9,588 bases of DNA from a virus (IMGVR_UViG_2690316346_000013); one strand, 5' to 3'; counted from the first letter of the stretch, positions 433-9,314 are shown. The notes: a model not told the origin generated them from the sequence alone. Translations and numbers: made by a program.

Positions 433-768
433 ATGAAGTGGATTGTGATTGATACAGTTATCCAGCCATCATGCGGAATATCTTTTTCAGTCATATGGAG
501 TAAAATAAAATTAATAATCTGGTATCAATCGGATGCTTTCTTACCTCCTGAAAGTATATTTACACTGACTCACACAGGCATCATGCTCAATAACAAAGTG
601 CTACCTGTAACCATTTACAACGTAGTACCATTCAATAAAACATTCTGGAATTCAATCAAAAATAGCCAGGAATGCCCTACAAATACAGATAACGTATTGA
701 ATGAATGCTTTAATAACCGTTGCACTCTGCAAATATGTCCTTATGGACTAAAACAACAAAGTCCATAA
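433..768 (+). CDS. Hypothetical 111-aa protein, Cys-containing C-terminal region, no family recognised
   Basis: ORF-track ORF with a good RBS (AAGGAA about 6 nt before the ATG). It follows a long AT-rich intergenic region and is followed by a perfect 8-bp GC hairpin. Codon usage is AT-rich, with 6 AUA codons by my count. Duplicated at 6371..6706. Confidence 0.5.
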
Positions 769-800: not shown

Positions 801-1025
801 AACAGCCCCTCCGGAGAGGGGCTGGAGAGTGGCGCTATGTGCCATTGCATGGTGCCGGGTGCCTCCCGGTGAATTCAGTACCAGCACCTGAATCCGCGAT
901 TATCCCATATACCTACTCGCTGATTGCCCCTCCGCACAGGGGGATTCACCATGCCAGTTTCTTTTAACAAACTCCCCGCAAACCAGACAACAGTCAACCG
1001 CCTGAATTGTGAAGTATTTAAAAAT
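801..1025. repeat. Hairpin-dense ~225-bp element, copy A (also 3497..3718 and 6739..6963)
   Basis: Four consecutive GC-rich stem-loops: 804..823 (agcccctc-cgga-gaggggct, perfect 8-bp stem), 855..869, 873..893 and 927..942, in otherwise AT-rich DNA. The copy at 3497..3718 differs by a handful of substitutions and a 1-nt deletion in the first stem, and has different flanks on both sides. Confidence 0.6.
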
Positions 1026-1048
1026 TTCTCCCGCTAACTGATACCCGG

Positions 1049-1135
1049 CTAACAGTCTGGCGTTTTCTTTTTCAGCAACGGGAAAGCAACAACCACCACA
1101 CCCGCCACCAGCACACCGTCAGCCAGCACTGACAT
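1049..1135 (-). CDS. Candidate small hydrophobic peptide (28 aa, MSVLADGVLVAGVVVVAFPLLKKKTPDC)
   Basis: Found by manual translation; it is below the ORF-track size cutoff. One predicted transmembrane-like helix followed by KKK. The SD is weak. An in-frame GTG upstream would give a 44-aa product. Duplicated at 6987..7073. Confidence 0.25.
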   Translation of the reverse strand: MSVLADGVLVAGVVVVAFPLLKKKTPDC

Positions 1136-1215
1136 TATCCGGCTGCTGCAATGCCATTCACAAAAACAGTAAGCAATCACTTTTTACCGTAACAGGTGAT
1201 AATCCAGATATGTAT

Positions 1216-1569
1216 CTACCCCAGATGAGTAATCCGAAGTTCATCCATACCACAGGTCCTGGCTATTCTGTTGTACTCCTGAACAAGAGCAAATAATTCT
1301 GAATTAGCAACCATGAACTCATCGCAAACCCTCTGTATAGCATCACTATTCAGAATAATAACGTCTCTTCCCGAAAGACGATCAGGAGTACAGAACAAAA
1401 CTGTCAAACGGCTGAAGGCCTTTGCTCGTGCTGCATTGACTATATCAATACGCTGCCTAAGGATGAAACACCCCGACGCCTCATCAATATTCACTCTACC
1501 CACACCATATGAATGATAAATATTTAATGCTGAAAAAACCATTAGACCGTATAACAAACACTCAATCAA
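1216..1569 (-). CDS. Hypothetical 117-aa protein, TTG start (internal ATG at codon 10 possible)
   Basis: ORF-track ORF whose translation looks protein-like (…[33 protein letters not shown]…). It is rich in rare Arg/Ile codons (AGA, AGG, AUA). Duplicated at 7154..7507. Start codon is uncertain. Confidence 0.4.
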
Positions 1570-1772
1570 TACTTAACAGAACTTTTATTAGTGCCAACTA
1601 TAAAGTGCTAGAATATTTTATCAATAATGGATTGGTTGATGTAAACAAAAAATTTCAAAAAGCAAATAGTGGGGACACTATGCTTGACAATGCAATGAAA
1701 AGCAAAGATTCAAAAATGATTGATTTTTTATTAAAAAATGGAGCAATATTAGGCAAACGATTTGAGATATGA
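1509..1772 (+). CDS. Ankyrin-repeat ORF fragment (87 aa), probably truncated or chimeric
   Basis: The translation contains ankyrin-like repeats: ...[22 protein letters not shown]... and [28 protein letters not shown] (G-x-T-x-L-x-x-A...LL-x-x-GA pattern). Only the first 81 nt lie inside the duplicated block; the repeats are encoded in unique DNA at 1590..1772. The start overlaps the 117-aa ORF on the opposite strand. Confidence 0.4.
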
Positions 1773-2109
1773 CCTAAAAGCTCGGCCAAATAATAATGTC
1801 GTCGATTATCGAAGTCATCATGAGTGATTCTGTCCCCACAGTGCAGCATCAGCATGACAGTGAATTGTCTGGCGTGGTCCATTTAATGAGATGGAGATGG
1901 TCCCTCTTTCCTAAATAGCTGTGCCTAATACCGCTACACTTTTGCCAGCCCATGTTTGCCTCCGGGGAATGGGCTGACGGTTCCTTCAAAATCCATTGCA
2001 CGCAGTTATGTCGGAGCGGGAACTTGACTCCCGTCTTTACGGGAGTGAGGTAGCCTGAGTTTAACGGACACTCCTTCCTGAAATAGAATGGCATCAGAAG
2101 GAGCCAATA

Positions 2110-2412
2110 ATGAGCAGAAAAACCCAACGTTACTCTACGGAGTTTAAAGCCGAAGCCGTCAAAACGGTTCCTGAAAATCAGCTTTCGATCAGTGAAGGCG
2201 CTTCCCGATTATCTCTTCCTGAAGGCACTTTAGGACAATGGGTTACCGCCGCAAGAAAAGGGCTCAATACACCAGGCTCCCGCACAGTGGCTGAGCTGGA
2301 ATCTGAAGTTATGCAACTGCGTAAGGCTTTAAATGAAGCACGACTTGAGCGAGATATATTAAAAAAAGCAACAGCGTATTTTGCACAGGAGTCGCTGAAA
2401 AATACGCGTTAA
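2110..2412 (+). CDS. IS600 transposase OrfA (HTH DNA-binding part), 100 aa
   Basis: RBS GAAGGAG before the ATG. N-terminal HTH followed by a leucine-zipper-like region, typical of IS3-family OrfA. Ends just after the A7G frameshift motif. Confidence 0.85.
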   Translation: MSRKTQRYSTEFKAEAVKTVPENQLSISEGASRLSLPEGTLGQWVTAARKGLNTPGSRTVAELESEVMQLRKALNEARLERDILKKATAYFAQESLKNTR

Positions 2413-2447
2413 TCGAACAATGGCGACAACAATTTCCCATTGAAGCG

Positions 2448-3266
2448 ATGTGTCAGGTATTTGGTGTATCCAGGAGCGGTTATTACAACTGGGTACAGCA
2501 TGAACCCTCAGACAGAAAACAAAGTGATGAGCGGCTAAAACTGGAGATTAAGGTGGCACATATCCGCACTCGCGAAACATATGGAACCCGGCGGCTCCAG
2601 ACGGAGCTGGCAGAGAATGGCATCATCGTTGGTCGTGACCGACTGGCACGTCTTCGTAAGGAGCTAAGGCTACGCTGTAAGCAGAAACGCAAGTTCAGAG
2701 CGACTACGAACTCGAACCACAATCTGCCAGTTGCGCCAAATCTGCTGAACCAGACGTTCGCTCCTACAGCACCAAATCAGGTCTGGGTGGCGGACCTGAC
2801 GTATGTTGCCACACAGGAGGGATGGTTGTACCTCGCTGGCATCAAAGATGTTTATACGTGCGAAATTGTCGGCTACGCCATGGGAGAGCGCATGACAAAA
2901 GAGCTGACAGGTAAAGCCCTGTTTATGGCGCTCAGGAGCCAGCGCCCACCTGCCGGGCTAATCCACCACTCTGATCGAGGTTCACAGTACTGCGCATACG
3001 ATTACCGGGTCATACAGGAGCAGTCTGGTCTGAAAACATCAATGTCGCGTAAAGGTAACTGTTACGACAACGCTCCGATGGAAAGCTTCTGGGGAACGCT
3101 GAAAAATGAGAGCCTGAGCCACTATCGTTTTAATAACCGGGATGAAGCCATCTCAGTAATACGGGAATACATTGAGATTTTCTACAATCGTCAGCGTCGT
3201 CACTCTCGTCTGGGGAATATCTCCCCGGCAGCCTTCAGGGAAAAATATCATCAGATGGCTGCTTAA
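2448..3266 (+). CDS. IS600 transposase OrfB (DDE catalytic domain), 272 aa as annotated; normally expressed as an OrfAB fusion by -1 frameshifting
   Basis: The orfB frame is open upstream to the A7G site at 2361..2368. The protein looks like an rve-type integrase core (…WVADLTYV… HHSDRGSQY… CYDNAPMESFWGTLK…). Confidence 0.85.
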   Translation: MCQVFGVSRSGYYNWVQHEPSDRKQSDERLKLEIKVAHIRTRETYGTRRLQTELAENGIIVGRDRLARLRKELRLRCKQKRKFRATTNSNHNLPVAPNLLNQTFAPTAPNQVWVADLTYVATQEGWLYLAGIKDVYTCEIVGYAMGERMTKELTGKALFMALRSQRPPAGLIHHSDRGSQYCAYDYRVIQEQSGLKTSMSRKGNCYDNAPMESFWGTLKNESLSHYRFNNRDEAISVIREYIEIFYNRQRRHSRLGNISPAAFREKYHQMAA

Positions 3267-3496
3267 AAAAAGAACAAATGGTAGTGTCCGCTATTGCCAG
3301 TACACCTCAGGATAGCGGTCATGTGATGCCGGTTTCCCGGTAACTCAGCACCGGTATCTGAGTCAACGTTTTCTCTACTGGGTCATTTCCGATACGCCCT
3401 GCCTGCTGACAGGCTTTCATCACATCTGAAAATATAGCACCCTGACTGATACTGTAGTACCTAAGGTTCCAGAAACTGTGATGTATCCGGCACAGA

Positions 3497-3718
3497 AAAG
3501 CCCCTCCGGAGAGGGCTGGAGAGTGGCGCTATGTGCCATTGCATGATGCCGGGTGCCTCCCGGTGAATTCAGTACCAGCACCTGAATCCGCGATTATCCC
3601 ATATACCTACTCGCTGATTGCCCCTCCGCACAGGGGGATTCACCATGCCAGTTTCTTTTAACAAACTCCCCGCAAAACAGACAACTGTCAACCGTCTGAA
3701 TTGTGAGACATTTAAAAA
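3497..3718. repeat. Hairpin-dense ~222-bp element, copy C (diverged copy of 801..1025)
   Basis: Alignable with 801..1025 across its whole length. Differences include gagaggggct to gagagggct, catggtg to catgatg, aaaccagacaacagtc to aaaacagacaactgtc, and gaagta to gagaca. It abuts the tRNA operon terminator. Confidence 0.6.
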
Positions 3719-3739
3719 AAAGGCCCGCAAAAGCGAGCC
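3714..3739 (-). terminator. Rho-independent terminator of the tRNA cluster (minus strand)
   Basis: On the minus strand: a 7-bp stem (ggcucgc / gcgggcc, one G.U pair) with a 4-nt loop, followed by a run of 8 U, starting 14 nt past the tRNA-Arg 3' end. Absent from the second tRNA copy. Confidence 0.55.
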
Positions 3740-3753
3740 AGGGAAAATAAGTG

Positions 3754-3830
3754 TGGCGCGTTGTACTGGATTCGAACCAGTGACCGATTGCTTAGAAGGC
3801 AATTGCTCTGTCCGGCTGAGCTAACAACGC
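3754..3830 (-). tRNA. tRNA-Arg (anticodon UCU), phage-type
   Basis: Manual cloverleaf, 77 nt: acceptor GCGTTGT/ACAACGC, D-arm GCTC...GAGC, anticodon arm ATTGC-CTTCTAA-GCAAT, T-arm ACTGG-TTCGAAT-CCAGT, then G-CCA. Confidence 0.8.
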
Positions 3831-3843
3831 ATGATGCAGATAA

Positions 3844-3920
3844 TGGACCGCCATCGGGGACTTGAACCCCGCGCAGCCAGCTTCGAAGGCTGGCGCTCTT
3901 TCCTGATGAGCTAATGGCGG
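3844..3920 (-). tRNA. tRNA-Arg (anticodon UCG), phage-type
   Basis: Manual cloverleaf, 77 nt: acceptor CCGCCAT/ATGGCGG (unusual C1-G72), D-arm GCTC...GAGC, anticodon arm CCAGC-CTTCGAA-GCTGG, T-arm CGGGG-TTCAAGT-CCCCG, then T-CCA. Confidence 0.7.
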
Positions 3921-3927
3921 TATGTGA

Positions 3928-4003
3928 TGGTGGCCCTTGCTGGATTTGAACCAGCGACCTGGCGATTATGAGTCGCTCGCTCTCACCACTGAGCTAAAGG
4001 GCC
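3928..4003 (-). tRNA. tRNA-Ile2-like (anticodon CAU, ileX/ileZ type, probably lysidine-modified to read AUA); tRNA-Met not excluded
   Basis: 76 nt. Strongly resembles E. coli ileX as I recall it (GGCCC.TTAGCTCAGTGGT.AGAGC..GCGACTCATAATCGC..GGTCGCTGGTTCAA.TCCAGCA.GGGCCACCA). Anticodon loop is CTCATAA. Confidence 0.8.
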
Positions 4004-4043
4004 GGGAGCCGCATAATAACGACGCGTAATTAATTCTTCAATA

Positions 4044-4844
4044 TCATCCGTTCTGGCTGACTAAATCCTGTACTTCCCGAACCGTCTGCTCAAAACGTTC
4101 AGTCTCCAGCTCAACGCCAATTGCACGACGCCCGAGCGCCAGTGCCGCTTTCACTGTCGAACCCAACCCCATGAAAAAATCTGCAATCAGGTCACCCGGA
4201 CGACTGCTAGCGCTGATTATCTGCTGCAGCATTTCTGCCGGTTTTTCGCACGGATGTTTCCCGGGATAGAACTGCACCGGTTTATGCGTCCACACATCGG
4301 TATACGGCACCTGCACCGTCACGCCAAAATACCGCCGCAGATGTTTATATTCACTCAGCAGCTCCGCATACTGCCGGTTCAGTGAGGTATACGTATCCAC
4401 CAGCTGGTGGTGGAGCTTTTCCAGTTCACCACGCCGATGCTTCTCTTCTGCCACCCGGGCAAACAGCGCCTGTAATTTCAGATAATCGCTTTCATTCGGC
4501 AACTGCCACTGACCGGCACTGAACCAGTGCGACACCATGTTTTTCTTTCCTGTGGCATCTGCAATCTGTTTTGCCGTTATCCCCAGGGCAGCTCGCGCAT
4601 CACGAAAGTAAGAAATCAGCGGGGCCATCACATGCTGTTTCAGTGCACTGCCCTTCGCCGCATACCCGGCATCTTTCGGACGATACGGCCCCTGATAATG
4701 TTCCGCGAACAGAATGCGCTCTGTGGCGGGGAAATACGCCCGCAGGCTTTCCTTGTTGCATCCGTTCCAGCGTCCGGACGGCTTCGCCCAGATAATATGG
4801 TTCAGCACACTGAAGCGTTCACGCATCATGATTTCGATATCAGA
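4044..4844 (-). pseudogene. 5'-truncated copy of the DNA methyltransferase (N-terminal ~87 codons including the DPPY motif replaced by IS600)
   Basis: Matches codons ~88..352 of the intact gene at 7908..8966. Homology stops at 4844, one base before IS600-derived sequence. No start codon or catalytic motif IV remains. Confidence 0.75.
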
Positions 4845-4845
4845 A

Positions 4846-5983
4846 TGAAAATCAACTTTCGATCAGTGAAGGCGCTTCCCGATTATCTCTTCCTGAAGGC
4901 ACTTTAGGACAATGGGTTACCGCCGCCAGAAAAGGGCTCGGTACTCCTGGTTCCCGCACGGTGGCTGAACTGGAATCTGAAATTCTGCAACTGCGTAAGG
5001 CGTTAAATGAAGCTCGCCTTGAGCGAGATATATTAAAAAAAGCAACAGCGTATTTTGCACAGGAGTCGCTGAAAAATACGCGTTAATCGAACAATGGCGA
5101 CAACAATTTCCCATTGAAGCGATGTGTCAGGTATTTGGTGTATCCAGGAGCGGTTATTACAACTGGGTACAGCATGAACCCTCAGACAGAAAACAAAGTG
5201 ATGAGCGGCTAAAACTGGAGATTAAGGTGGCACATATCCGCACTCGCGAAACATATGGAACCCGGCGGCTCCAGACGGAGCTGGCAGAGAATGGCATCAT
5301 CGTTGGTCGTGACCGACTGGCACGTCTTCGTAAGGAGCTAAGGCTACGCTGTAAGCAGAAACGCAAGTTCAGAGCGACTACGAACTCGAACCACAATCTG
5401 CCAGTTGCGCCAAATCTGCTGAACCAGACGTTCGCTCCTACAGCACCAAATCAGGTCTGGGTGGCGGACCTGACGTATGTTGCCACACAGGAGGGATGGT
5501 TGTACCTCGCTGGCATCAAAGATGTTTATACGTGCGAAATTGTCGGCTACGCCATGGGAGAGCGCATGACAAAAGAGCTGACAGGTAAAGCCCTGTTTAT
5601 GGCGCTCAGGAGCCAGCGCCCACCTGCCGGGCTAATCCACCACTCTGATCGAGGTTCACAGTACTGCGCATACGATTACCGGGTCATACAGGAGCAGTCT
5701 GGTCTGAAAACATCAATGTCGCGTAAAGGTAACTGTTACGACAACGCTCCGATGGAAAGCTTCTGGGGAACGCTGAAAAATGAGAGCCTGAGCCACTATC
5801 GTTTTAATAACCGGGATGAAGCCATCTCAGTAATACGGGAATACATTGAGATTTTCTACAATCGTCAGCGTCGTCACTCTCGTCTGGGGAATATCTCCCC
5901 GGCAGCCTTCAGGGAAAAATATCATCAGATGGCTGCTTAAAAAAAGAACAAATGGTAGTGTCCGCTATTGCCAGTACACCTCA
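4846..5983 (+). mobile_element. 5'-truncated IS600 (equivalent to positions ~127..1264; left inverted repeat and orfA start missing)
   Basis: From ~5030 to the end it is identical to the full copy. The first ~180 bp (4846..~5030) differ at about 14 positions from the full copy and encode the OrfA variant ...GLGTPGSRTVAELESEILQ..., i.e. a mosaic of two IS600 isoforms. Confidence 0.8.
5122..5940 (+). CDS. IS600 transposase OrfB (second copy), 272 aa; the upstream orfA is only a start-less fragment (4846..5086)
   Basis: Protein identical to the orfB product at 2448..3266. Confidence 0.8.
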   Translation: MCQVFGVSRSGYYNWVQHEPSDRKQSDERLKLEIKVAHIRTRETYGTRRLQTELAENGIIVGRDRLARLRKELRLRCKQKRKFRATTNSNHNLPVAPNLLNQTFAPTAPNQVWVADLTYVATQEGWLYLAGIKDVYTCEIVGYAMGERMTKELTGKALFMALRSQRPPAGLIHHSDRGSQYCAYDYRVIQEQSGLKTSMSRKGNCYDNAPMESFWGTLKNESLSHYRFNNRDEAISVIREYIEIFYNRQRRHSRLGNISPAAFREKYHQMAA

Positions 5984-6110
5984 GGGTATAAGGGGTTATG
6001 GCCACCGGACTACCAAACGGCTGCCAGCCCTCTTTCAGTTTATGTGTCAGCTTTTCCGCAAGATCTGACGGCGGCGCCGCCCTGACAACATCATAGTGTT
6101 TAAATGCCAT
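5937..6110 (-). CDS. Small hypothetical protein (MAFKHYDVVRAAPPSDLAEKLTHKLKEGWQPFGSPVAITPYTL...), 3' end fused to IS600 end sequence
   Basis: ATG at 6110..6108 with an upstream GGTGGAAAG tract; an alternative upstream ATG is at 6125. Native sequence ends at the IS600 boundary (5983/5984); the last ~14 codons are IS-derived. Confidence 0.3.
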   Translation of the reverse strand: MAFKHYDVVRAAPPSDLAEKLTHKLKEGWQPFGSPVAITPYTLRCTGNSGHYHLFFF

Positions 6111-6370
6111 GGTTCTTTCCACCATCTGAAAAATAATTCTTTAAAATACCTGACATGTAATACAGAAAAAACACAAAACCATACCTTAAATAAAAACCTG
6201 ATTATCAAGCAGATATGCATGGATAAACTACAAGACGAGATATAAACCACCCTGCATTTAAATAAACAATAAACAACATCAGAAAAATAATTCTGCTCTA
6301 TGGTTTACATTCAAAAATATCATTTATACTTTTCAGAACATCACCAGCAAGGCATAAACAAGGAAACTAA

Positions 6371-6706
6371 ATGAAGTGGATTGTGATTGATACAGTTATC
6401 CAGCCATCATGCGGAATATCTTTTTCAGTCATATGGAGTAAAATAAAATTAATAATCTGGTATCAATCGGATGCTTTCTTACCTCCTGAAAGTATATTTA
6501 CACTGACTCACACAGGCATCATGCTCAATAACAAAGTGCTACCTGTAACCATTTACAACGTAGTACCATTCAATAAAACATTCTGGAATTCAATCAAAAA
6601 TAGCCAGGAATGCCCTACAAATACAGATAACGTATTGAATGAATGCTTTAATAACCGTTGCACTCTGCAAATATGTCCTTATGGACTAAAACAACAAAGT
6701 CCATAA
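6371..6706 (+). CDS. Hypothetical 111-aa protein (duplicate of 433..768)
   Basis: Sequence identical to 433..768, with the same RBS and the same downstream hairpin. Confidence 0.5.
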
Positions 6707-6738
6707 GGAGTTTACTCACATCTGACAAAATCAATATA

Positions 6739-6963
6739 AACAGCCCCTCCGGAGAGGGGCTGGAGAGTGGCGCTATGTGCCATTGCATGGTGCCGGGTGC
6801 CTCCCGGTGAATTCAGTACCAGCACCTGAATCCGCGATTATCCCATATACCTACTCGCTGATTGCCCCTCCGCACAGGGGGATTCACCATGCCAGTTTCT
6901 TTTAACAAACTCCCCGCAAACCAGACAACAGTCAACCGCCTGAATTGTGAAGTATTTAAAAAT
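6739..6963. repeat. Hairpin-dense ~225-bp element, copy A' (identical to 801..1025)
   Basis: Lies inside the 1,589-bp duplication. Confidence 0.6.
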
Positions 6964-6986
6964 TTCTCCCGCTAACTGATACCCGG

Positions 6987-7073
6987 CTAACAGTCTGGCG
7001 TTTTCTTTTTCAGCAACGGGAAAGCAACAACCACCACACCCGCCACCAGCACACCGTCAGCCAGCACTGACAT
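6987..7073 (-). CDS. Candidate small hydrophobic peptide (duplicate of 1049..1135)
   Basis: Identical sequence. Confidence 0.25.
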   Translation of the reverse strand: MSVLADGVLVAGVVVVAFPLLKKKTPDC

Positions 7074-7153
7074 TATCCGGCTGCTGCAATGCCATTCACA
7101 AAAACAGTAAGCAATCACTTTTTACCGTAACAGGTGATAATCCAGATATGTAT

Positions 7154-7507
7154 CTACCCCAGATGAGTAATCCGAAGTTCATCCATACCACAGGTCCTGG
7201 CTATTCTGTTGTACTCCTGAACAAGAGCAAATAATTCTGAATTAGCAACCATGAACTCATCGCAAACCCTCTGTATAGCATCACTATTCAGAATAATAAC
7301 GTCTCTTCCCGAAAGACGATCAGGAGTACAGAACAAAACTGTCAAACGGCTGAAGGCCTTTGCTCGTGCTGCATTGACTATATCAATACGCTGCCTAAGG
7401 ATGAAACACCCCGACGCCTCATCAATATTCACTCTACCCACACCATATGAATGATAAATATTTAATGCTGAAAAAACCATTAGACCGTATAACAAACACT
7501 CAATCAA
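7154..7507 (-). CDS. Hypothetical 117-aa protein (duplicate of 1216..1569)
   Basis: Identical sequence. Here it lies about 110 bp downstream of the tRNA cluster on the same strand, with no terminator between them. Confidence 0.4.
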   Translation of the reverse strand: MIECLLYGLMVFSALNIYHSYGVGRVNIDEASGCFILRQRIDIVNAARAKAFSRLTVLFCTPDRLSGRDVIILNSDAIQRVCDEFMVANSELFALVQEYNRIARTCGMDELRITHLG

Positions 7508-7617
7508 TACTTAACAGAACTTTTATTTTTGACAAACATAAAATATTTTCAACAATATCCTGAGCCAGGTATATTTCAGTATAAGGCTCTGCCGGAAGGA
7601 ATCTGGAAGAATGAATA

Positions 7618-7694
7618 TGGCGCGCTGTACTGGATTCGAACCAGTGACCGATTGCTTAGAAGGCAATTGCTCTGTCCGGCTGAGCTAACAACGC
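7618..7694 (-). tRNA. tRNA-Arg (anticodon UCU), second copy with U4.G69 in the acceptor stem
   Basis: Same as 3754..3830 except for c at 7625 (t at 3761), which turns the U4-A69 pair into a U.G wobble. Confidence 0.75.
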
Positions 7695-7707
7695 ATGATG
7701 CAGATAA

Positions 7708-7784
7708 TGGACCGCCATCGGGGACTTGAACCCCGCGCAGCCAGCTTCGAAGGCTGGCGCTCTTTCCTGATGAGCTAATGGCGG
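7708..7784 (-). tRNA. tRNA-Arg (anticodon UCG), second copy
   Basis: Identical to 3844..3920. Confidence 0.7.
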
Positions 7785-7791
7785 TATGTGA

Positions 7792-7867
7792 TGGTGGCCC
7801 TTGCTGGATTTGAACCAGCGACCTGGCGATTATGAGTCGCTCGCTCTCACCACTGAGCTAAAGGGCC
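7792..7867 (-). tRNA. tRNA-Ile2-like (anticodon CAU), second copy
   Basis: Identical to 3928..4003. Confidence 0.8.
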
Positions 7868-7907
7868 GGGAGCCGCATAATAACGACGCGTAATTAATTC
7901 TTCAATA

Positions 7908-8966
7908 TCATCCGTTCTGGCTGACTAAATCCTGTACTTCCCGAACCGTCTGCTCAAAACGTTCAGTCTCCAGCTCAACGCCAATTGCACGACGCCCGAG
8001 CGCCAGTGCCGCTTTCACTGTCGAACCCAACCCCATGAAAAAATCTGCAATCAGGTCACCCGGACGACTGCTAGCGCTGATTATCTGCTGCAGCATTTCT
8101 GCCGGTTTTTCGCACGGATGTTTCCCGGGATAGAACTGCACCGGTTTATGCGTCCACACATCGGTATACGGCACCTGCACCGTCACGCCAAAATACCGCC
8201 GCAGATGTTTATATTCACTCAGCAGCTCCGCATACTGCCGGTTCAGTGAGGTATACGTATCCACCAGCTGGTGGTGGAGCTTTTCCAGTTCACCACGCCG
8301 ATGCTTCTCTTCTGCCACCCGGGCAAACAGCGCCTGTAATTTCAGATAATCGCTTTCATTCGGCAACTGCCACTGACCGGCACTGAACCAGTGCGACACC
8401 ATGTTTTTCTTTCCTGTGGCATCTGCAATCTGTTTTGCCGTTATCCCCAGGGCAGCTCGCGCATCACGAAAGTAAGAAATCAGCGGGGCCATCACATGCT
8501 GTTTCAGTGCACTGCCCTTCGCCGCATACCCGGCATCTTTCGGACGATACGGCCCCTGATAATGTTCCGCGAACAGAATGCGCTCTGTGGCGGGGAAATA
8601 CGCCCGCAGGCTTTCCTTGTTGCATCCGTTCCAGCGTCCGGACGGCTTCGCCCAGATAATATGGTTCAGCACACTGAAGCGTTCACGCATCATGATTTCG
8701 ATATCAGATGCCAGGCGATGACCACAGAACAGGTAAAGACTTCCGGCAGGTTTCAGCACCCGCCAGAACTGCGCCAGACACTGGTCCAGCCACTTCAGGT
8801 AATCATCGTCGCCCTTCCACTGGTTATCCCAGCCCTCAGGCTTCACTTTAAAGTACGGCGGGTCCGTGACTATCAGGTCAACAGAATTTTCGGGTAACGA
8901 CCGGATAAATTCCAGGCAGTCGGCGTTGATTAACTCACAACTGGATATTTTTACAGTATTAAGCAT
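7908..8966 (-). CDS. Beta-class amino-DNA methyltransferase (N6-adenine or N4-cytosine), 352 aa, phage-type orphan
   Basis: Motif IV DPPY (…DLIVTDPPYF…) near the N-terminus and motif I FxGxG (…DFFMGLGSTV…) near the C-terminus, which is the beta-class order. No adjacent restriction endonuclease candidate. Sits immediately upstream of the tRNA triplet on the same strand. Confidence 0.85.
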   Translation of the reverse strand: MLNTVKISSCELINADCLEFIRSLPENSVDLIVTDPPYFKVKPEGWDNQWKGDDDYLKWLDQCLAQFWRVLKPAGSLYLFCGHRLASDIEIMMRERFSVLNHIIWAKPSGRWNGCNKESLRAYFPATERILFAEHYQGPYRPKDAGYAAKGSALKQHVMAPLISYFRDARAALGITAKQIADATGKKNMVSHWFSAGQWQLPNESDYLKLQALFARVAEEKHRRGELEKLHHQLVDTYTSLNRQYAELLSEYKHLRRYFGVTVQVPYTDVWTHKPVQFYPGKHPCEKPAEMLQQIISASSRPGDLIADFFMGLGSTVKAALALGRRAIGVELETERFEQTVREVQDLVSQNG

Positions 8967-9100: not shown

Positions 9101-9130
9101 ACAAATAAAAAAGCCTTCACTGCGGAAGGC
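9101..9130 (-). terminator. Rho-independent terminator after the 65-aa gene (minus strand)
   Basis: On the minus strand: stem gccuuc / gaaggc with a 6-nt loop, followed by UUUUUUAUUU. The TGA stop of the 65-aa ORF lies inside the stem. Confidence 0.6.
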
Positions 9131-9314
9131 GTCTGTAACAACCGAACTGATAGTCTGCCAGACCCGCCATAACCAGCTGGGTCAGTATTAACTGGCAGCG
9201 TTCGCGTGAAAGGTAAGTATTCTGCGCTATCTCCCCGACTGTCGCCGGTTCGGTAACGCTTAATTCATTAAACACCACTCTGGCGGTTTCTGTCATATCC
9301 TGCTGTTTTAGCAT
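9117..9314 (-). CDS. Small HTH-like DNA-binding protein, 65 aa
   Basis: Good RBS (GGAAAAGGAAAAG before the ATG). The segment …ATVGEIAQNTYLSRERCQLILTQLVMAGLA… has the spacing of a helix-turn-helix or winged-helix motif. Bracketed by two intrinsic terminators. Confidence 0.5.
   Translation of the reverse strand: MLKQQDMTETARVVFNELSVTEPATVGEIAQNTYLSRERCQLILTQLVMAGLADYQFGCYRRLPQ

Follow-up and report, generated by a model that had tools for sequence, protein, structure and literature searches.

The window analyzed here is a 9,588-nucleotide (nt) stretch of viral DNA (IMGVR_UViG_2690316346_000013), in which a block between a phage tRNA-Arg(tct) gene and the module of the small RNA (sRNA) STnc100 is present at one tRNA cluster (long allele) and replaced by a short hairpin sequence at another (short allele). 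This block is probably a deletion derivative of an orf92-tciA-tciB gene module situated in the slot equivalent to that of the Shiga toxin genes in Stx2 phages. Its first gene, orf92, appears to be intact and would be expressed by transcriptional read-through. The relevant features of the two alleles are as follows.

6963 to 7617, minus strand: block of the long allele, from tRNA-Arg(tct) to the STnc100 module; 655 bp, 41.5% G+C
7508 to 7617, minus strand: AT-rich spacer replacing the tRNA terminator; 31.8% G+C
7433 to 7507, minus strand: in-frame upstream extension of orf92, 25 codons from a TTG; most likely an untranslated leader
7154 to 7432, minus strand: orf92, conserved gene of 92 amino acids (aa); GTG start at 7432-7430, stop at 7156-7154
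7119 to 7150, minus strand: remnant of the tciA 3′ end and tciA/tciB junction, directly behind the orf92 stop; identified by alignment to JLK-2012, which spans the stop codon of tciA and the start of tciB
6987 to 7118, minus strand: tciB′, degraded tciB; 43-aa DUF3927 open reading frame (ORF) with GTG start, WP_000562553.1 in the Prokaryotic Genome Annotation Pipeline (PGAP)
6732 to 6921, minus strand: STnc100 sRNA (Rfam RF02076), with its own terminator at 6762-6741
3719 to 3753, minus strand: short-allele intrinsic terminator; hairpin also present behind tRNA-Arg in Stx2 phage VT2-Sakai and phage Nil3

A preliminary description, made from the sequence of the window, had recognized in the block a 117-aa ORF starting at a TTG (7154 to 7507, minus strand) that could not be placed in any family. 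A conserved gene does form the core of this ORF, but its product is 92 aa long, and a partial placement is possible: residues 10 to 117 match profile positions 1 to 108 of phrog_2873 (E = 3.8e-70), a family of hypothetical 92-aa proteins of which orf92 is a member with no difference from the rest, and which has no Pfam or NCBIfam model, solved structure, or described function. Databases already contain the exact 92-aa sequence, entered as a hypothetical protein of Enterobacteriaceae and listed for Shigella sonnei (A0AAU8W454_SHISO); we found no mention of the accession numbers or of phrog_2873 in the literature. A word-indexed search for relatives gave 17 clusters, two of them at 56% identity. 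A hidden Markov model (HMM) search of 1.84 billion representatives, using a profile from our own alignment, yielded only 21 matches, mostly 91 to 95 aa long and aligned to residues 26 to 117, with identities of 32 to 62% in this HMM family. Intact homologues are carried by the independent loci L003, L008, L009, L011, and L012; those of L008 and L012 (ETEC4079; 92-aa WP_001017777.1 in PGAP) are 62% identical and that of L009 (Citrobacter braakii) about 40%.

Conservation of the ORFs as proteins had been named beforehand as the test of their reality, and for the larger ORF conservation is what the diverged homologues display. Pairwise ratios of nonsynonymous to synonymous substitution rates (dN/dS) are 0.24 to 0.27, third-position changes are in excess, and the frame is free of stops in the four lineages compared. 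Of the five other frames over orf92, four have ratios of nonsynonymous to synonymous differences (pN/pS) of about 1 and are interrupted by stops in each lineage; the fifth, the mirror antisense frame, has a pN/pS of 0.38 to 0.64, low because third positions are shared, and stops in 3/4 lineages. A plus-strand 67-aa antisense ORF (7251 to 7454) was accordingly rejected as a gene, its low pN/pS being a mirror-frame artifact. Polymorphism was examined in 76 near-identical copies of the block, from viral contigs and Escherichia coli loci. Here orf92 is the least polymorphic part (0.039 versus 0.083 segregating sites per nt), its core having six synonymous and five conservative nonsynonymous sites and zero disruptive mutations. 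Judging from these sequence comparisons, orf92 is a real gene under purifying selection whose product has 92 rather than 117 aa.

The start codon assignment follows the same homologues. The 25-residue extension upstream of the GTG is absent from distant orf92 homologues and out of frame in L011, and in the 76 copies it has four nonsynonymous changes, one synonymous change, and one 1-nt deletion. AlphaFold2 gives its residues (1 to 25) a predicted local distance difference test score (pLDDT) of about 50. At the site equivalent to 7432, L008 has AGGAG-N4-GTG and L009 has AGGGA-N4-ATG. The conserved start thus appears to be the GTG at 7432, and both the 117-aa form and a 108-aa form were rejected as the true protein because the extension is unconserved, out of frame in L011, and carries lesions in the 76-copy sample.

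The 28-aa hydrophobic peptide of the preliminary description, MSVLADGVLVAGVVVVAFPLLKKKTPDC, also exists (6987 to 7073), although not convergent with the larger ORF as had been claimed: both lie on the minus strand, codirectional with the tRNAs. A plus-strand ORF of 28 aa (7148 to 7234) was considered as the peptide meant and was rejected, not being hydrophobic. The peptide is the ATG-initiated C-terminal part of the 43-aa ORF tciB′ and corresponds to the transmembrane helix at the C terminus of a DUF3927/TciB-like ORF. The ORF tciB′ has matches to Pfam DUF3927 (95.6 bits versus a cutoff of 25, E = 1.7e-27) and to the "TciB-like" phrog_1470 (E = 7.8e-13), and its residues 12 to 39 (28 residues) are identical to TciB of JLK-2012. 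The preliminary description had called the content of the block unrecognized, which for the peptide is superseded by its descent from tciB and for the larger ORF by its phrog_2873 membership and prior deposition, while the lack of an assigned function for orf92 stands.

Several features point to degradation of tciB′. In alignment to JLK-2012 the original tciB start GTG has become GTT, and deletions of 11, 4, and 5 nt fall within the part coding for the first transmembrane helix; the present N terminus, IAYCFCEWHC, is therefore read from shifted sequence. Full-length TciB proteins have about 50 to 54 aa and two hydrophobic helices, of which tciB′ retains the second only. Nor is there an upstream tciA (TerB-like) gene to which its translation could be coupled. 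JLK-2012, L008, and L009 have tciA; here only about 25 nt from the 3′ end of the gene are left, still recognizable by nucleotide alignment with JLK-2012. In L008 and L009 the order is orf92, terminator, tciA (TerB, Pfam E = 3.6e-7), tciB (DUF3927, 50 aa, two helices), and holin. Among the 76 copies, the new GTG start of tciB′ is lost in nine and codon 8 is a stop in three (12/76 together), and its polymorphism density equals that of noncoding DNA. The 43-aa element thus appears to be a decaying tciB under relaxed constraint; if anything is translated from it, it would be the ATG-initiated 28-aa single-helix peptide. With the tciA-tciB pair of JLK-2012 the window shares the DUF3927/phrog_1470 match, the 28 identical residues, and recognizable tciA/tciB junction DNA, and it differs in having no tciA, no tciB start codon, and no first transmembrane helix. 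The genes owe the name tci to phage P1, and its sole basis is that TciA resembles TerB (PMC9603915). The "DUF3927 family protein" of 43 aa that is widely annotated in E. coli (WP_000562553.1) is this degraded tciB with its frameshift-derived N terminus, and the DUF3927 family model may have been trained in part on such remnants. We found one incidental mention of DUF3927 in the literature.

The difference between the two tRNA modules is genuine: self-BLAST bounds the allele-specific DNA at about 23 to 35 bp in copy 1 and 642 to 655 bp in copy 2, so that the coordinates first proposed are right to within 1 bp. Folding and a terminator scan also bear out the earlier view that copy 1 has a good intrinsic terminator and copy 2 none. 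The 35 bp of copy 1 (3719 to 3753) form a stable G+C-rich hairpin with an immediate U tract, as expected of an intrinsic (Rho-independent) terminator: GGCUCGC-UUUU-GCGGGCC followed by U8, with a 7-bp stem and a 4-nt loop (−13.8 kcal/mol, z = −3.76). As the hairpin also stands behind tRNA-Arg, ahead of stx2A, in VT2-Sakai, it belongs to the tRNA module. No terminator comparable to the short-allele hairpin was detected within 6963 to 7617, the next on the strand being that of STnc100 (6762 to 6741), which is the first downstream of the block. The spacer that takes the place of the tRNA terminator contains a weak promoter-like sequence, TTGAAA-16-AAAAAT at 7552-7525, a consensus match only (9/12 positions). 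The G+C content of the block is below that of its flanks (53 to 56%), as is typical for accessory DNA.

The STnc100 module starts at TCACAATTCAG in every allele, and TTTTTAAAT, just upstream of this start, is common to the short allele, the long allele, and JLK-2012. Inspected by eye, the junction sequences at the two ends of the block showed neither a repeated motif nor a target-site duplication, no repeat search having been made at that scale. Both alleles are common among 5,426 complete E. coli genomes, where "full-length" denotes coverage of at least 80% of the block or query: the block or part of it occurs in 1,715 and at least 80% of it in 1,183, and the short form, at that coverage of the query, in at least 1,022. 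We take the two alleles to reflect alternative cargo between conserved module boundaries, not a datable insertion. As to whether the block always travels with the tRNA triplet, this holds for the near-identical E. coli form, in which the tRNAs, block, and STnc100 make up a constant unit that often includes iraM; it does not hold for the more diverged orf92 homologues, which are also found without tRNAs.

Gene order in related prophages supports the equivalence of the slot. In O104:H4 the intact order is Q antiterminator, 65-aa protein, DNA methyltransferase, three tRNAs, block, STnc100, iraM (opposite strand), SASA/nanS-p esterase, holin, and lysozyme. In VT2-Sakai, stx2A and stx2B stand between the three tRNAs that come after Q and an STnc100-like element, beyond which are a yjhS-like esterase and S; JLK-2012 has tRNAs, tciA, tciB, and yjhS; and phage Nil3 carries the short allele. 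The general order therefore appears to be Q, (methylase), tRNA-Ile2/Arg/Arg, slot, STnc100 sRNA, nanS-p esterase, holin, and lysin, and the 655-bp block would be one of several alternative cargoes in a variable accessory slot, the one in which Stx2 phages carry stx2AB. The position matches that of stx2AB in phages of the VT2-Sakai/933W type, with Q and tRNAs of the ileZ-argN-argO type before it and an STnc100-like sRNA, the nanS-p/yjhS esterase, and the lysis genes after it, and the tRNA-Arg terminator hairpin is the same in the short allele and VT2-Sakai. Unlike the stx2AB slot, the block holds orf92 and a tciB remnant rather than toxin genes, and the long allele lacks the tRNA terminator that VT2-Sakai retains before stx2A.

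STnc100, the "hairpin element" of the preliminary description, is present three times in the window (minus strand, 6732 to 6921, 794 to 983, and 3488 to 3677), with covariance scores of 132.4, 132.4, and 123.6 bits against a gathering threshold of 47 and model positions 1 to 206 (full) covered. The copy at the short allele diverges by about 4 to 6% and is the one scoring 123.6 bits versus 132.4 in the other two. STnc100 is a prophage sRNA whose copies are abundantly transcribed in enterohemorrhagic E. coli (EHEC) (PMC5331693); in Stx2 phages its place is downstream of stx2 (PMC12370729), and it is related to PasD (bioRxiv 10.64898/2026.05.13.724894). Upstream of the orf92 homologue in L009, at 3740 to 3940, there is an STnc100/PasD-like hairpin (CCGGGAGGAAGAACCCGGCACTGCAT) with a terminator, so that the order of sRNA and orf92 is reversed relative to the window.

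On the reading that we prefer, an orf92-tciA-tciB module would have lost nearly all of tciA along with the start and first helix of tciB, with orf92 kept. With a promoter-like site ahead of the tRNAs and no terminator within the block, read-through from the tRNAs is plausible: transcripts from the tRNA promoter in lysogens would run on through orf92 and tciB′, the tRNA-Arg terminator being missing in the long allele, and Q-antiterminated late transcripts would likewise cross both after induction, ending in either case at the STnc100 terminator. The features on either side of the block are as follows.

7877 to 7905, minus strand: promoter-like site TTGAAG-17-TATTAT, about 10 nt ahead of the tRNAs; consensus match only
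7618 to 7867, minus strand: phage tRNA cluster, tRNA(CAU), tRNA-Arg(tcg), and tRNA-Arg(tct); same triplet again at 3754-4003
6371 to 6706, plus strand: iraM, anti-adapter protein; NCBIfam NF007393, 162 bits versus a cutoff of 121, and PGAP annotation
1025 to 1589, minus strand: second block copy, its upstream end cut; orf92 at 1216-1494, tciB′ at 1049-1180; joined at 1589/1590 to a 3′ fragment of ospC4

The sigma-70-like site lies between the methylase stop codon and tRNA(CAU), which is classified as Met by ARAGORN and as Ile by PGAP. The iraM gene is the opposite-strand neighbor of the STnc100 module and is outside the block; a second copy is found at 433 to 768 (plus strand). It runs opposite to the late operon, between STnc100 and a DUF1737/nanS-p stub, and its product is an anti-adapter that stabilizes RpoS.

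A phage moron is classically an extra gene between conserved genes, with a promoter and a terminator of its own. The block resembles one in adding DNA between elements that related phages have side by side (tRNA-Arg and STnc100 lie 35 bp apart in copy 1 of the window and in Nil3, the adjacency expected of a moron site), in its lower G+C content relative to the flanks, and in that the orf92 homologue of L008 and L009 has its own terminator downstream. It departs from the type in that orf92 of the window has no terminator of its own and only the weak promoter-like match (9/12), such that its expression would rely on read-through. The proposal of a moron or accessory cassette inserted into a conserved backbone thus survives as accessory cargo in a variable slot of the lambdoid late region, but not as a discrete insertion into a fixed backbone, because the ends coincide with module boundaries that are used for stx2AB or tciA-tciB elsewhere.

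For the product of orf92, AlphaFold2 (11-sequence alignment) gave a model with a mean pLDDT of 78.6, at 86 to 96 for most of residues 31 to 117 and 66 in the loop 61 to 70. Two long antiparallel helices are predicted (residues 28 to 58 and 75 to 106 in the numbering of the 117-aa ORF), connected by the conserved loop FxTPDRxSGxxVxILN (motif TPDRxSG). The product is acidic (isoelectric point, 5.7), and on reading the sequence of the 92-aa core we saw no signal peptide or transmembrane segment, no predictor having been run. We take the protein to be cytoplasmic, and the model suggests a generic alpha-helical two-helix hairpin. Nothing significant was found for orf92 in Pfam, NCBIfam, or PADLOC (the sole Pfam line was RHIM, E = 0.09), and tciB′ had no PADLOC match. 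A PDB sequence profile search returned nothing below E = 0.05, Foldseek searches of PDB and BFVD nothing below E = 0.1, and BLASTP no alignment between orf92 and TciA. Viral-contig scans with the distant homologues P0025 and P0027 gave no matches; P0030, a marginal match (E = 1e-5), is encoded within a baseplate module of Mu-like type and is perhaps no true relative. The orf92 product would most likely be a small accessory or modulator protein that binds another host or phage protein; a secreted toxin or an enzyme is unlikely.

In two loci, L003 and L011, a YdeO/GadX-like AraC regulator lies directly upstream of the orf92 homologue; the 241-aa regulator (164 to 889 in L003, 2755 to 3480 in L011) ends 22 nt before it. 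Further regulators neighbor diverged homologues in L095 (GerE type) and L097 (papB). As a functional clue, this adjacency is a weak lead and not a finding. The AraC-like neighbor had suggested a PerC/Pch-like identity for orf92, which was dropped for want of a Pfam PerC match. The L011 slot additionally carries a TolA C-terminal domain protein and a methylase remnant. L008 (JAEWMQ010000075.1) is labeled as a Bacillota metagenome-assembled genome, yet its genes are enterobacterial and lambdoid (methylase 3′ end, orf92, tciA, tciB, and holin); the contig is probably misbinned or a contaminant sequence.

By self-BLAST, the window consists of three partial copies of one lambdoid late region with insertion sequence (IS) copies between them. 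Positions 3742 to 4844 and 7605 to 8708, spanning the tRNAs and the 3′ part of the methylase, are 99.5% identical. The STnc100 element recurs at 3496 to 3718, 6738 to 6962, and 800 to 1024, mutually alike at 96 to 100% (96% for the first two). Positions 1 to 1589 and 5939 to 7527 are 100% identical, and the block accordingly occurs twice, in full at 6963 to 7617 and truncated at 1025 to 1589, the latter having been overlooked in the preliminary description. An IS3-family element at 2172 to 3311 matches 4846 to 5985. The IS3-family copies, which we take to be IS600-like, lie at 1 to 47 (tail only), about 2050 to 3311, and 4846 to 5985; one is 5′ truncated, and they encode an OrfA of 100 aa and an OrfB of 272 aa. 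The DNA methylase gene is cut by the IS at 4846, with its 3′ part at 4044 to 4829. Positions 1590 to 2171 (plus strand) hold a 3′ fragment of the type III secretion system effector gene ospC4 (Pfam Shigella_OspC, E = 1e-28) followed by the start of an IS3-family element, and 1591 to 2171 match the ospC4/IS3 junction of enteroinvasive E. coli invasion plasmids at 100%; the joint at 1589/1590 of the ospC4 fragment with the truncated block creates a chimeric 87-aa ORF (1509 to 1772). A 65-aa ORF at 9117 to 9314 (minus strand), a hypothetical protein in PGAP with weak winged-helix similarity (TrmB, E = 0.003), sits between Q and the methylase in related prophages. The window is not contiguous in any of the complete E. 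coli genomes searched. Given the S. sonnei listing of the orf92 product and the invasion-plasmid junction, it probably comes from Shigella or enteroinvasive E. coli.

A number of observations weigh against a deletion-derived module with a working orf92. The window is an IS-scrambled prophage remnant, so the copy here may be unexpressed, and expression and translation of orf92 are in any case predictions from sequence. Only a weak Shine-Dalgarno sequence, GGG, precedes GTG 7432, versus AGGAG in L008 and AGGGA in L009. PGAP leaves orf92 unannotated in roughly 1,180 genomes with copies at least 99% identical (1,179 of 1,314 genomes have copies of that identity, and 128 copies are at 60 to 80%; carriers with an intact prophage include O104:H4, 55989, and EPEC E2348/69); it calls nothing over the gene in these genomes and yet annotates the 62%-identical homologue in ETEC4079. 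The 76 copies are nearly clonal, which makes the within-lineage evidence for selection (six synonymous and five nonsynonymous sites) thin, and the dN/dS estimate has the support of four or five diverged lineages only. Lastly, the junction of the T run with TTTTTAAAT would fit cargo lost from the short allele as well as cargo gained by the long one.

Some of these observations would suit a nonfunctional relic, i.e., an orf92 that is real elsewhere but unexpressed here and that persists through recent spread. The deleted tciA and degraded tciB, the weak Shine-Dalgarno sequence and missing PGAP call, the 1,179 of 1,314 genomes with copies at least 99% identical, which bespeak recent spread, and the scrambling of the window by IS copies all agree with it. 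A relic would nonetheless not be expected to have in orf92 its lowest polymorphism density, with stops or frameshifts in 0/76 copies where the extension and tciB′ do have lesions, nor a synonymous-to-nonsynonymous site ratio of 6:5 instead of the roughly 1:3 expected under neutrality, and we consider a relic rather unlikely. More improbable is a discrete novel cassette, inserted into a conserved tRNA/hairpin backbone and encoding a toxin, effector, or antidefense function as the preliminary description had it. The indel does lie between flanks that are 96 to 99% identical, the block is richer in AT than these, the slot holds stx2AB in Stx2 phages, and orf92 is without an assigned function. Against this, the ends are module boundaries common to the stx2 and tciAB alleles, with no repeat or target-site duplication seen on reading the junctions; the part from tciB′ to STnc100 is contiguous in JLK-2012, which has no orf92; the cassette is visibly in decay; and neither Pfam, NCBIfam, and PADLOC matches nor a signal peptide or transmembrane segment seen by reading the 92-aa core give any sign of such a function for orf92.

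The regulator genes beside some homologues would be accounted for if orf92 encoded a small anti-activator or coregulator of acquired transcription factors, within a regulatory cluster with iraM and STnc100. This we regard as improbable: no regulator gene adjoins orf92 in the lineage of the window, L008, L009, or L012, regulators are common in acquired DNA and their adjacency may be due to chance, no PerC or other regulator family is matched, and a match to TraM is one of 91 generic hairpin matches, at 12% identity. It would also be a long shot that orf92 is a functional, lysogen-expressed regulator of prophage-borne YdeO/GadX-like or other acquired transcription factors which, with IraM and STnc100, makes the stx-equivalent slot a stress-response and virulence-regulation module; if true, RefSeq annotation would have missed this regulator in more than 1,100 complete E. 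coli genomes. Finally, the block might work as RNA, as a long tRNA 3′ trailer or an STnc100 5′ precursor in which the ORFs are incidental. This seems very improbable. There is indeed no terminator between the tRNAs, block, and STnc100, whose copies are abundantly transcribed in EHEC (PMC5331693), but the substitutions in orf92 are codon periodic and frame specific, STnc100 also occurs in phages without the block (Nil3 and VT2-Sakai), and the folded stretches of the block are of ordinary stability (z = −0.4 to +0.6).

Taken as a deletion derivative of an orf92-tciA-tciB module, the block represents fairly ordinary phage mosaicism, and the findings on orf92 and tciB′ leave the understanding of lambdoid phages unaltered. 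They do indicate that in about one-quarter of complete E. coli genomes PGAP passes over a conserved 92-aa gene that is apparently under purifying selection, and that the neighboring ORF that is annotated, the "DUF3927 family protein," appears to be the decayed remnant of tciB. The slot is of medical relevance as the site of the Shiga toxin genes, and its contents in non-Stx prophages help to reconstruct how the toxin phages were assembled.

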